Source: an uncultured Methanosarcinales archaeon
Lineage (GTDB): Archaea > Nanobdellota > Nanobdellia > Woesearchaeales > GW2011-AR9
Direction of reading: 5' to 3'
DNA length: 64,000 nt
NCBI GenBank assembly: GCA_964362365.1
Contig: CAYIEF010000003.1
Coordinates: 79 to 64,078, forward strand
Under the pieces are notes generated by a model, which was not told the origin of the DNA, made no database searches, and worked only from the letters and a program-made list of their open reading frames with translations. Below are positions 19,248 to 39,232 of the stretch, piece by piece; positions within the stretch are counted from its first letter, which is position 1; every line of letters starts with the position of its first letter. The translations under genes and the position numbers were made by a program.

Positions 19248-19319
19248 GAGGTCGTAGTGTAAAAGGTATCATCCTTGGTTGGTGACCTTGAGATCCGGGT
19301 TCGATTCCCGGCGGTCCCA
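19248..19319 (+). tRNA. tRNA-like gene, possibly tRNA-Thr(GGU), with imperfect stems
   Basis: Canonical T-arm CCGGG-TTCGATT-CCCGG. U8 and A9 present. D-loop carries GG. Anticodon loop TTGGTGA gives anticodon GGU. The acceptor stem (GAGGTCG/CGGTCCC) has one mismatch and two GU pairs. The anticodon stem has two T-T mismatches. Confidence 0.4.
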
Positions 19320-19440
19320 CATCCCATTTAAAATTGAATGTTTTTATATATTTTTCTGTAGTTAATTGTAGATATATCCAATTGCCGTTCACAAACCTAA
19401 ATAACACCATTTATATATCAGCTCTCTTTTCATAATAGAA

Positions 19441-34999: not shown

Positions 35000-35791
35000 A
35001 TGATCGTCCAAAAAGATTTTTTAGAAAGATTGAAAGATTTTGGCTTGAATTCCTACGAACGAAAATTATGGATCGCCCTTCTGTCCAGAGGAGTATCTAC
35101 CGCAGGAGAGTTATCAGACATCTCTAACGTCCCTCGCTCCAGAGCGTATGACGTTCTTGAATCCTTGGAAAAGAAAGGATTTATTGTAGTGAAAGTAGGA
35201 AAGCCAATAAAATATTTAGCCGTCGCCCCTTCAGAAGTTATCGAGCGGGTTAAGAAAAAAGTATCTGAAGAAGCAGATGAGCGCAGCAAGATGCTCTCTC
35301 AATTGAGAGATTCTGAAATCTTGGAACAATTAAATTCATTGCATGCAGAAGGAGTTATCTTAGTGGATCCAACAGATAAATCAGGGTCGTTTAGAGGAAG
35401 GGATAAAGTCTATGAGCATCTCTTTTTGATGTTCAAGAACGCGAAGAAGAATATCACGATCATGACTTCTGCCCAAGGATTAGCTCGAAAAAATGATTCC
35501 TTTGCAAACCATCTGCGCAAAGCTGCCAAAGCTGGAGTGAATGTTCAGATTGTTGTCCCGCCTAATACTGATAAAGAACTTATTGATAACTTTTCACAGT
35601 TTGCAAAAGTGAAGACCAGCAAGAATAGTATAACTAGATTCTGCATGGTCGATGGCAAGGACTTACTGTTATTCTTGACTGATGACCAGAAAGTACACAA
35701 GAGTTACGACTGCGCAGTCTGGGTGGAAGCTCCTTACTTCGTTGAATTCTTTGGGAAGATGTTTGAGCAGGAGTGGAAAGGAAGTAAGTAA
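35000..35791 (+). CDS. TrmB family transcriptional regulator
   Basis: N-terminal wHTH (NSYERKLWIALLSRGVSTAGELSDISNVPRSRAYDVLESLEKKGF). Confidence 0.7.
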   Translation: MIVQKDFLERLKDFGLNSYERKLWIALLSRGVSTAGELSDISNVPRSRAYDVLESLEKKGFIVVKVGKPIKYLAVAPSEVIERVKKKVSEEADERSKMLSQLRDSEILEQLNSLHAEGVILVDPTDKSGSFRGRDKVYEHLFLMFKNAKKNITIMTSAQGLARKNDSFANHLRKAAKAGVNVQIVVPPNTDKELIDNFSQFAKVKTSKNSITRFCMVDGKDLLLFLTDDQKVHKSYDCAVWVEAPYFVEFFGKMFEQEWKGSK

Positions 35792-35794
35792 ACA

Positions 35795-36217
35795 ATGCCA
35801 AGACTAACTGATGATGATATCCATGGACTTGTTTATTTAGTTGAAGATTCTAAGCCTAATGCAGGTGAACAACAAGCTGAGCAATCTCTTCACGAATTAA
35901 TAGTTTATCATGGTATTGACGAGGAATTTCTAAACGATAATATTTATGCTTGGCCCCCAGGAAATGCTAAACACATAGCCATGACTAATGGTTGTAAACT
36001 TAGATTTAAAAGTATGAAACAGCTATCGGACAAATCTCACAGAAAATGGATCAGAGTTAATGGACATTTAGTTAGTGACAATGGTTGTAGCATTGGCACA
36101 GTTGTTATTGGTGATAATCCCGAGAAACTAAAAGAAGTATGTGAAACAATTCATCGCAAATATGGCGTTACTCACAAAGAAGACCGTAATCCTTATGGTT
36201 GTCATCCTAAGTGTTAA
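35795..36217 (+). CDS. hypothetical protein
   Basis: ORF 3 nt after the TrmB gene. Confidence 0.4.
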   Translation: MPRLTDDDIHGLVYLVEDSKPNAGEQQAEQSLHELIVYHGIDEEFLNDNIYAWPPGNAKHIAMTNGCKLRFKSMKQLSDKSHRKWIRVNGHLVSDNGCSIGTVVIGDNPEKLKEVCETIHRKYGVTHKEDRNPYGCHPKC

Positions 36218-36330
36218 TATAAATAAAATTTCAACCAATAACTCTTTAACTTTCTTAGAGATTTTTAGTAAATTACTTCTCCATCACAGAAATCCTTATA
36301 ACAGATCCTTTAACAACTTCTAAAGAAAAA

Positions 36331-36395
36331 AGCGGGTTCGCTTAGTCAAGTTGCGATCGCCACGCAAATATCCTTACCCAGAATGAGATTTAATA
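36331..36395 (+). other. decayed partial tRNA duplicate (junction-like GCGGGT|TCGCTTAGTC ... TTACCCAGAATGAG)
   Basis: Shares the D-arm segment TCGCTTAGTC and the TTACCCAG segment with the downstream tRNA-Ile. Lacks an acceptor stem. Confidence 0.4.
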
Positions 36396-36434
36396 TAGAT
36401 TGAATATTTAAAACTTTCGTGAAAAAAGTGCAGA

Positions 36435-36550
36435 GCCGAGGTCGCTTAGTCCGGTAGAGCGTCTGCCTGATAAGCAGATATCATTACCCAGGATAGGCGG
36501 GTTCGAACTTTCCTTTCCCACCTCGGGAAGTGGAAGTCCCGCCCTCGGCG
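36435..36550 (+). tRNA. tRNA-Ile(GAU) with two insertions (about 13 nt in the variable region and 29 nt between T-loop positions 59/60); putative non-canonical introns
   Basis: Perfect acceptor stem GCCGAGG/CCTCGGC. D-arm GCTT-AGTCCGGTA-GAGC. Anticodon arm TCTGC-CTGATAA-GCAGA. T-arm GCGGG-TTCGAA[29 nt]T-CCCGC. Discriminator G. Confidence 0.6.
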
Positions 36551-36598
36551 CACAAAAATAACAAATACTTTTTATAATACTATTTCTTCTTCAACTTC

Positions 36599-36943
36599 AT
36601 GGCCCTCAAACAAGTAATCATAGTCCGACAAGACTTACAGCTCCCAAAAGGAAAACTAGCCGCGCAATGCAGCCATGCCGCGGTAGAAGCAGTGCTAAAA
36701 TCTTCTGACAAAAAAGTTTCCACTTGGAGAAAAGAAGGAATGCCCAAGATCGTTCTCAAAGTGAAAGATGAAAAAGAACTGTTACTGTATCTGCAGAAAG
36801 CTAAGGATGATGGATTGACTACAGCTTTGATTACTGATGCTGGCAGGACTGTTGTCGCACCGGGAACTAAAACCTGCGGCGCTATTGGGCCGGATGAAGA
36901 GGAAAAAATTGATGTAGTGTCTGGGAAGTTGCCGTTGTTGTAG
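36599..36943 (+). CDS. pth2: peptidyl-tRNA hydrolase, archaeal type (Pth2)
   Basis: IIVRQDLQLPKGKLAAQCSHAA... Pth2 signature. Confidence 0.85.
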   Translation: MALKQVIIVRQDLQLPKGKLAAQCSHAAVEAVLKSSDKKVSTWRKEGMPKIVLKVKDEKELLLYLQKAKDDGLTTALITDAGRTVVAPGTKTCGAIGPDEEEKIDVVSGKLPLL

Positions 36944-38383: not shown

Positions 38384-39232
38384 ATGTCATTAGAAACAAT
38401 CACTGGAAATTTGAAAGATGCGTACAAACAATTGCAGCCAGGCACCATGCTGCACGTTGATGAATTGATGAACGAACGCCGGACAAATGAAGAATTACGC
38501 AGTAATGGCTTTTATACTCCCGATGGAGAAGTGTACTTTCTTTATGGCGTTAATAAAACTCCAATTCTGGCCATGACCAGAGAAGCTCGAAATCCAGTTC
38601 TTAAAAATATTGATGATGCTTTTGAACAGTTGACTACAAAGGGAAATTATGGTGTACAGGGAAAAGATTTCACGAAAGCCATTACTGATGCAGTACTTGT
38701 ATTCTTGCCTAACCTACGATTATCAAAACATGATGCAGAATTTCAATATCTTCCTTTCGGAACAACTCCTGCCAAATACAGTAAATTGAACGATGAAGAA
38801 CGAAAGTTCGCCGAACGTGTCTATGGCCAAGGAGATGATTTTGTCAAGAACATGAAAATGTTGAAAGAGGCAGGCATTGGTGAAACTCGGATTTGGGTTC
38901 TGAATCCAGATTACGTTCGAAAACATGCAGCCGAAGGCGCGATTGCGCGGGCCTCTTGGCTTGACAATTTCTATTATGGATCGCAATTCAATGCCGGTGA
39001 TCGTGATATCAGTAACGACGGCCGCGTCCGTGGGGTACGTCGGGAGGTCGTCGCCGAAGGCGGCGCGCAAAAAAATAAAGGTCCTTATCGCACTGCAGCA
39101 AAAAATGGTTTCGTAACTCATTACGATGCGATTCTTGCTGATCCAGAAGGCGCAGTTAAAGCCATGAATGATAAAACTGCTGCTGGCCTTTCAAGGCTTC
39201 TTTCCAGTTATTTATCTACTCGAGGACAATAA
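38384..39232 (+). CDS. DGR variable (target) protein; the VR lies at 38943-39037 near the C-terminus
   Basis: The 95-nt VR matches the TR at 39442-39536 except at 14 positions, all TR adenines. A GC hairpin (CGCCGAAGGCGGCG) follows the VR. The C-terminal region SWLDNFYYGSQFNAGDRDISNDGRVRGV is C-type-lectin-like. Confidence 0.85.
   Translation: MSLETITGNLKDAYKQLQPGTMLHVDELMNERRTNEELRSNGFYTPDGEVYFLYGVNKTPILAMTREARNPVLKNIDDAFEQLTTKGNYGVQGKDFTKAITDAVLVFLPNLRLSKHDAEFQYLPFGTTPAKYSKLNDEERKFAERVYGQGDDFVKNMKMLKEAGIGETRIWVLNPDYVRKHAAEGAIARASWLDNFYYGSQFNAGDRDISNDGRVRGVRREVVAEGGAQKNKGPYRTAAKNGFVTHYDAILADPEGAVKAMNDKTAAGLSRLLSSYLSTRGQ

Follow-up and report, generated by a model that had tools for sequence, protein, structure and literature searches.

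A tRNA(GAU) gene with a predicted bulge-helix-bulge intron in the T loop, a long variable region and an upstream relic in a DPANN archaeon

The window analyzed here (the whole 64-kb stretch of DNA, 64,000 nucleotides) carries a complete tRNA gene with the anticodon GAU whose T loop is interrupted by 29 nt, and these 29 nt are convincingly an archaeal bulge-helix-bulge (BHB) intron. The same gene has a variable region of 18 nt and lies downstream of a decayed partial copy of itself. Overall, we consider it moderately likely that this locus is a tRNA(GAU) gene with a spliced BHB intron at tRNA position 59/60, a long variable region that is retained, and a relic upstream (Table 1).

The tRNA(GAU) gene and its genomic setting

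The host of this gene is a Woesearchaeales-like DPANN archaeon from aquifer metagenomes. Housekeeping genes of the window are archaeal (exosome Rrp41/42, RpoK, a TrmB-like regulator, Pth2, L44e and S27e), and the closest homologs of Pth2 are labelled Nanoarchaeota or Woesearchaeota, i.e., DPANN, by their source records. The Pth2 of the window recurs on contigs, some from metagenomes of the Hainich aquifer and some from other runs. All locus-bearing contigs (8/8) are identical to the window over whatever part of the intergenic stretch between TrmB/ORF140 and pth2 each of them covers.

The ORFan, the relic and the tRNA follow one another along the ~770 bp from TrmB to the pth2 promoter, a segment of unremarkable G+C content that is absent in the closest relatives. 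The sole match of the ORFan among 5.8 billion proteins was itself. In six contigs of the closest relatives (L065-L070; Pth2 88-91% identical) TrmB and pth2 are spaced by 58-151 nt, and in other relatives the slot contains unrelated small ORFs. No tRNA was found between TrmB and Pth2 in the contigs of any of nine Pth2 relatives, where this slot is empty or holds other small ORFs.

Table 1. Features of the TrmB-Pth2 slot of the window (positions of the window)
Feature	Position	Strand	Remarks
140-aa ORFan	35795..36217	+	no Pfam match; no homolog
Decayed partial tandem copy of the tRNA(GAU) gene	36307..36387	+	alignments, repeats; no significant fold
TATA-box-like A/T-rich element AATATTTAAAA	36403..36413	+	~22-32 nt upstream of tRNA position 1
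tRNA(GAU) gene, complete cloverleaf	36435-36550	+	read from sequence
tRNA(GAU) 5' exon, positions 1-59 (acceptor 5' strand to T-loop U54-A59)	36435..36507	+	
Variable region TATCATTACCCAGGATAG (RNA UAUCAUUACCCAGGAUAG)	36479..36496	+	18 nt, weak hairpin, without BHB motif
BHB intron CTTTCCTTTCCCACCTCGGGAAGTGGAAG, tRNA position 59/60 (between A59 and U60)	36508..36536	+	29 nt; strict 3-4-3 motif
tRNA(GAU) 3' exon: U60, CCCGC, CCTCGGC, discriminator G73	36537..36550	+	

The acceptor stem pairs GCCGAGG (36435-41) with CCTCGGC (36543-49) and leads into U8 and C9. It is followed by the D arm (GCUU-AGUCCGGUA-GAGC as RNA, the loop being AGTCCGGTA as DNA), by G26, and by the anticodon arm TCTGC-CTGATAA-GCAGA with the anticodon GAT at 36469-36471. 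The T stem GCGGG (36497-501)/CCCGC closes a T loop composed of TTCGAA, the 29-nt insertion (36508-36) and T, and the discriminator is the G at 36550, after which CCA is not encoded. Stem pairs are intact throughout (21/21; 20 Watson-Crick and one G-U, with zero mismatches), and the conserved tRNA bases U8, A14, G18G19, A21, U33, G53, U54U55C56 and A58 are all present. An earlier description of the locus, made from the letters of the window (hereafter the sequence-only reading), had called the acceptor, D, anticodon and T stems perfect; this is true of three of them, and the D stem (GCTT/GAGC) includes one U13-G22 wobble. Its coordinates and counts for the two insertions, 18 nt at 36479-36496 and 29 nt at 36508-36536, were exact.

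Comparable A/T boxes lie at a similar distance from the window's two ARAGORN-called tRNAs, and the A/T-rich element probably serves the tRNA(GAU) gene as a promoter of its own. The leader GUGC (36428-36434) can pair with G73 and the following CAC (36550-36556), lengthening the acceptor stem past a 3-nt AGA bulge and followed by AAA. This pairing of leader and trailer is an HBh'-like arrangement around the entire tRNA(GAU) and may be due to chance. Another tRNA of the window, tRNA-Thr(GGU) at 19248-19320, reaches only 43 bits with Rfam; its acceptor stem contains a mismatch, A2xC71, along with two G-U pairs.

Standard searches miss the tRNA(GAU) gene because of the 59/60 intron. The genomic sequence gave no call in ARAGORN, intron mode included, and its score against RF00005 (24.6 bits) is below the Rfam gathering cut-off of 29, with the 3' half mis-aligned into the insertion. 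No ortholog was found in species-representative genomes, in one metagenome scan, in three viral-contig scans or by phage BLAST. Exon patterns with variable gaps returned 0 matches in the species-representative genomes and then only bacterial tRNA-Ile, mostly from Actinomyces, and no archaeal genome among these representatives had a tRNA with the same anticodon-stem and T-arm sequences. The D-arm/anticodon pattern recovered two bacterial tRNA arrays from JGI metagenomes, and matches in the three viral-contig scans and in the phage BLAST were at chance level or unrelated.

Other parts of the neighborhood also vary. Comparing window 35791-36600 with L012-L018, L065-L070 and L119-L123 revealed that the TrmB-Pth2 slot and the region downstream of Pth2 differ among close relatives, which have nothing, small ORFans, EndA-RadC or an ATP-grasp gene in these places, a pattern suggestive of a local gene-turnover hot spot. 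In L119 (3846-4085; the same in L120, 585-825) pth2 is followed by a 240-nt gap rich in inverted repeats (e.g., CACCAGTG...CACTGGTG and CGGTCGAATTTCCGACC) that contains no called gene or tRNA and could be an unrecognized small RNA. Further downstream in the window, an RT-11 RNA motif (39271-39413; 117.8 bits, E = 1.4e-24, below the gathering score of 143.5) lies directly upstream of two ORFs (39567-39929 and 40017-40796) that make up a split reverse-transcriptase-like gene. These elements and a 282-aa ORF (38384-39232) are found between S27e and eIF2-alpha, two genes that are adjacent in the relative L012.

The T-loop intron and the splicing capacity of the lineage

A systematic scan of 36300-36600 detected a single strong strict 3-4-3 BHB, which delimits exactly the 29-nt insertion (h = 6, H = 4/4, h' = 6). 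Its central helix H pairs U54-G57 (UUCG, 36502-05) with intron nucleotides 24-27 (UGGA, 36531-34) through two Watson-Crick and two G-U pairs. The outer helix h is the T stem, with five pairs plus the extra pair G36496-C36543, and the helix h' is made of six intron pairs (36509-14/36525-30). The splice sites are held in the 3-nt bulges, after AA in AAC and after AG in AGU. The cuts predicted by this motif coincide with the unique boundaries that regenerate the T loop UUCGAAU, so that the earlier proposal of an intron at this place is borne out by an exact hBHBh' motif. When intron sequences were shuffled with the boundaries fixed, the probability of obtaining H = 4 together with h' of at least 6 was 3.5e-5. 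The same BHB geometry reproduces the known 37/38 intron of the window's tRNA-Asn.

Removal of the 29 nt in silico restored a recognizable tRNA, called by ARAGORN as tRNA-Ile(gat) of 88 nt, in agreement with the isotype assigned in the sequence-only reading. Furthermore, a SPLITS-like test was run on BHB candidates from the window and from 11 loci of relatives; among 5,667 BHB-defined deletions only one produced a new tRNA call, namely the removal of 36508-36536. A BHB-aware finder had been proposed as a check on the gene, and this succeeded with the SPLITS-like deletions, which yield tRNA-Ile, and failed with the intron mode of ARAGORN.

The BHB conformer is not the favored fold of this RNA. 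Its energy is -11.6 kcal/mol, versus -21.0 kcal/mol for a register-shifted continuous hairpin that buries both splice sites and that is possible because of near-repeats within the intron (CUUUCC/UUUCCC and GGGAAG/UGGAAG). However, the BHB conformers of control canonical introns (tRNA-Asn and the RadC-adjacent tRNAs of relatives) also fall 3-6 kcal/mol short of the MFE. Nearest-neighbor energies therefore penalize BHBs in general, although the gap is larger for the T-loop intron, and the unfavored fold thus qualifies the assignment as an intron but does not exclude it.

Position 59/60 is a documented site of archaeal introns, including those of DPANN: both pre-tRNA-Cys and pre-tRNA-Pro of ARMAN-2 are interrupted there, and the 59/60 intron of ARMAN-2 tRNA-Cys was cut in vitro by the ARMAN-2 enzyme (PMC3239211). 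In our gene, the motif predicts excision at the same site. The 4-bp helix at the center would consist of U54-G57 and intron bases 24-27, with the T stem and the intron hairpin as the two flanking helices, an archaeal splicing endonuclease would cut within the two bulges, and an RNA ligase would rejoin the exons into a normal T loop, UUCGAAU. The 18-nt variable region would most likely escape splicing, and the mature RNA would keep it as an additional weak hairpin or loop. The product would presumably be charged with isoleucine; its G73 is atypical for tRNA-Ile, and the discriminator is a strong tRNA-Ile determinant in the systems studied (PMC9976931).

No EndA was detected by tblastn within the 64-kb window. 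Nevertheless, the canonical intron in the window's tRNA-Asn implies that the organism has a splicing enzyme, and close relatives encode an EndA of 202-205 aa that adjoins pth2/RadC. The relatives' enzyme aligns end-to-end with the alpha4 EndA of M. jannaschii (1a79), with 2 gap positions and no inserted loop, and on this alignment it is classed as a plain M. jannaschii-like alpha4 type. Alpha4 enzymes without the inserted loop have been described as needing strict motifs (PMC3239211, PMC5829648). A loop-less alpha4-type EndA in the relatives fits the strict motif at 59/60 and speaks against cutting of the motif-less variable region.

Canonical BHB introns are present in this lineage not only in the tRNA-Asn of the window but also in the RadC-adjacent tRNAs of relatives. 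The latter are positional orthologs of one tRNA (L065 4211-4328(-), L124 9855-9967(+), L067 4368-4475(-) and L134 8310-8419(+)); they have G73, carry a BHB intron at the canonical site 37/38 and form a genuine variable arm, with covariation and a GUC...GAC core. Two lineages have the anticodon UAA, and two others have GAA. Opposite position 34, the intron base changes in step (U34-A to G34-C), which shows that these anticodons are real. A tRNA that combines GAA, a V-arm, G73 and A37 is not a normal tRNA-Phe, yet TTT/TTC codons align with Phe in both lineages.

The upstream relic and the possibility of a pseudogene

The segment upstream of the gene resembles it in sequence over a promoter-like box, the leader motif GAAAAAAG, positions ~3-17, a degenerate anticodon-arm-like hairpin (TTGCG-ATCGCCA-CGCAA) and the variable region. 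It ends where the T stem would start, without T arm, intron or 3' acceptor strand. That this is a decayed duplicate, as had been suspected, was confirmed by the local alignment of 36280-36409 against 36410-36560, which scores 29 (500 shuffles: 14.8 +/- 2.2, maximum 24), and by the direct repeats D2/D7 of 21 nt (86%) and 15 nt (87%), placed 110 and 104 nt apart. Likewise, the 17-nt motif ATATCNTTACCCAGRAT has 2 exact occurrences in 64 kb, against 0.1 expected. The global alignment of relic and gene is collinear, with 65 of 78 aligned columns identical. It starts at the A/T box (TTTAAC vs TTTAAAAC) and runs through the common GAAAAAAG, an 8-nt gap (leader TGCAGA plus G1C2), CG[G/A]G[T/G]TCGCTTAGTC and a gapped, degenerate D/anticodon region to ATATC[C/A]TTACCCAG[A/G]AT. 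The relic has no folding signal (z = +0.54), and on the same figure a functional RNA in it was rejected.

The junction in this fragment had been interpreted differently in the sequence-only reading, namely as T-stem sequence joined directly to the D loop, arising from a tandem internal duplication or left as an att-like remnant. Although the 9-mer GCGGGTTCG is literally identical to the 5' half of the T arm, it was created in the relic by the 8-nt deletion plus two substitutions. A T-stem/D-loop recombination junction leaves the shared GAAAAAAG leader motif unexplained, and a collinear copy with an 8-nt deletion is more parsimonious; the fragment aligns in order with promoter, leader, positions 3-17 and variable region rather than across an internal junction. 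In att duplicates left by integration, the repeated portion is the tRNA's 3' part, and the repeats flank an integrase-bearing element. Here, the repeat covers the promoter and the 5' part, 104-110 nt upstream, there is no integrase, the only gene of the segment is the ORFan, and no second copy of the T arm, 3' half or 3' acceptor strand was found in the window, so that an att origin was discarded. A split or permuted tRNA was also rejected, the relic being a same-sense 5' copy that lacks a complementary leader and has no 3' half in the window to partner with. Nor does the relic point to selective conservation of its variable-region sequence, where 15/17 positions are identical, which is not significant given the runs expected at ~70-80% identity. 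From these alignments, the relic is the non-functional remnant of a ~105-nt tandem duplication whose unit reached from the promoter through the whole variable region, and which post-dates the origin of the long variable region.

This duplication bears on whether the full copy is itself functional. A rather doubtful alternative is that the locus is a graveyard of tRNA-Ile duplicates, in which the seemingly intact copy is a recently disabled or dispensable pseudogene within a strain-specific segment and the working tRNA-Ile(GAU) is encoded elsewhere. Consistent with it, the segment is missing from all syntenic relatives examined, a decayed sibling adjoins the gene, the archaeal species-representative genomes have no tRNA sharing its anticodon-stem and T-arm sequences, and the most stable fold of the intron hides the splice sites. 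The gene also has its oddities, i.e., an 18-nt variable region without a stable arm, G15 opposite G48, and G73. However, every stem pair and all conserved tertiary bases are intact, the exact strict BHB has been kept, a promoter-like box is located at the right distance, and eight assemblies from different samples carry the locus unchanged over the parts they cover. Neutral decay of equal age should have broken several pairs, as in the sibling, which is unfoldable. Perfect stems in one copy next to a decayed, unfoldable paralog argue for purifying selection on the intact copy, and this contrast is the best available argument for past selection on it.

The variable region in the light of known systems

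The 18-nt variable region is the one odd, unexplained feature of tRNA(GAU). It can form the hairpin UAUC(A)U/A(G)GAUA with the loop UACCC and an A-G mismatch, which ARAGORN draws as a long variable arm. The stability of this hairpin is -0.1 kcal/mol at 37 C and -2.9 at 10 C, versus -1.4 to -4.8 kcal/mol at 37 C for genuine V-arms on the relatives' class II tRNAs, and its stem is flanked by 0 unpaired nucleotides before and 1 after. The most likely fate of the region is either that it is kept in the RNA as a weak extra hairpin or that the gene is impaired. More precisely, its retention within a working tRNA is about evenly balanced, a non-functional gene is somewhat unlikely, and splicing by an unrecognized route is distinctly unlikely.

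The interpretation of this insertion as a second intron, put forward in the sequence-only reading, is not supported and fails the check for a BHB-compatible structure that was named there. In a scan allowing bulges of 2-4 nt, 36479-36497 did not contain both splice sites of any BHB, hBH or HBh' motif, and the 11 splice-site pairs that would leave a 4-5-nt variable loop, enumerated by hand, have at most 3/4 H pairs and no h; the relatives' EndA, moreover, is collinear with the strict alpha4 enzyme. Two 4-bp helices of the insert, with the D loop (GGUA/UACC) or with the anticodon loop (CCUG/CAGG), were also considered and rejected, as they would excise the whole anticodon arm. It is accordingly unlikely that both insertions are introns, with 13-14 nt of the variable region cut through a relaxed or unrecognized motif to leave a normal class I tRNA-Ile. 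This possibility has some appeal, given that removing 36483-36496 gives the variable loop UAUC, which ARAGORN accepts, and places C48 opposite G15 in a restored Levitt pair (with the 18 nt kept, G15 faces G48). The D arm is class I-like, its stem being 4 bp long and G19 and A21 being separated by just one nucleotide. Archaea have tRNAs with several introns as well as relaxed hBH/HBh' motifs (PMC3239211, PMC4090602), and in some DPANN an alpha4 enzyme goes together with disrupted tRNA genes (PMC5829648). Against this, none of the splice-site pairs leaving a 4-5-nt variable loop has a 4-pair H helix, a 13-14-nt intron would need an exon-exon helix h for hBH and none flanks the variable loop, and the relatives' EndA lacks the inserted loop, as does the strict M. 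jannaschii enzyme.

It is very unlikely that the gene encodes a class II-like tRNA with an Ile anticodon, in which the 18 nt are a true long variable arm that, with G73, G1-C72 and G30-C40, confers (partial) serine identity: although ARAGORN models such an arm, serine identity depends on a long variable arm plus G73 with the anticodon ignored, with G30-C40 and G1-C72 contributing in archaea (PMC9976931), relatives keep a G73 tRNA with a V-arm (anticodon GAA in two lineages, UAA in two) and nematodes have nev-tRNA-Ile(UAU) and nev-tRNA-Gly(CCC) (PMC4033280), the hairpin is AU-rich, mismatched and marginal beside the relatives' V-arms, lacks the unpaired flanking nucleotides of those arms, and goes with a class I-like D arm, G73 is not diagnostic as it is also found on the tRNA(UAA) and tRNA-Asn of the lineage, and in codon alignments of the relatives ATT/ATC correspond to Ile, TTT/TTC to Phe and TTA to Leu, in keeping with the standard code. 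By the same codon alignment, codon reassignment in the relatives was rejected. Class II tRNAs were defined here by a variable stem-loop that is stable and has unpaired nucleotides on its flanks, by an enlarged D loop, and by the isotype Leu, Ser or bacterial Tyr. With its marginal hairpin, 0 unpaired nucleotides before the stem and 1 after, only one nucleotide between G19 and A21 and the anticodon GAU, tRNA(GAU) was not assigned to them. If the gene did have serine identity, Ser would be inserted, or would compete, at AUU/AUC, in an archaeal analog of the nematode nev-tRNAs. It is highly improbable that a retained arm makes this a class II-type tRNA with GAU and G73 that is at least partly Ser-charged or otherwise used in regulated mistranslation, as part of a broader, as yet undescribed habit of V-arm tRNAs with class I anticodons in this DPANN lineage; such a habit is supported by the relatives' V-arm, G73 tRNA with the anticodon GAA.

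Returning to a spliced tRNA(GAU) with a retained variable region, each of its parts can be compared with known systems. In comparison with V-arm tRNAs that have an anticodon other than Leu/Ser, tRNA(GAU) is alike in its 18-nt variable region, which can be drawn as a stem-loop, and in G73, as in tRNA-Ser. However, its arm is marginal, neither flanking unpaired bases nor the D-loop features of class II are present, and the body of the tRNA is unlike the real V-arm tRNAs of the lineage. Still, the 18-nt variable region and the relatives' V-arm tRNA(GAA) hint at looser rules of tRNA architecture in this lineage than has been assumed. As to the relic, it resembles tRNA pseudogenes derived from partial tandem duplication in being collinear with the promoter and the 5' two-thirds of the gene, with indels and no folding signal.

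A cryptic tRNA-Ile(GAU) with one BHB intron at 59/60 is a known kind of feature in DPANN. The insertion point is the same as in pre-tRNA-Cys(GCA) and pre-tRNA-Pro(GGG) of ARMAN-2 and in the multi-intron tRNAs of Thermoproteales (PMC3239211), and here too the T stem serves as the outer helix while T-loop bases and the intron form the 4-bp central helix. With ARMAN-2 it further shares a DPANN host and invisibility to default tRNA finders. On the other hand, the isoacceptor is Ile(GAU), and the motif is a strict hBHBh', as in ARMAN-2 tRNA-Pro, whereas ARMAN-2 tRNA-Cys has a relaxed hBH. The tRNA(GAU) intron also differs from those of ARMAN-2 in that it can refold into a far more stable hairpin. 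Undetected disrupted tRNA genes are explicitly expected in DPANN genomes (PMC5829648). Reconstructions of these genomes often seem short of some tRNAs, and the locus described here is a concrete case, in which an intron at 59/60 conceals the tRNA that reads AUU/AUC, codons in very frequent use. Lastly, the enzyme involved here is likely a plain alpha4 EndA, and not epsilon2 or (alpha-beta)2 as in the systems compared here, which suggests that strict BHB introns outside the canonical position can occur in a lineage whose endonuclease is of the plain alpha4 type.
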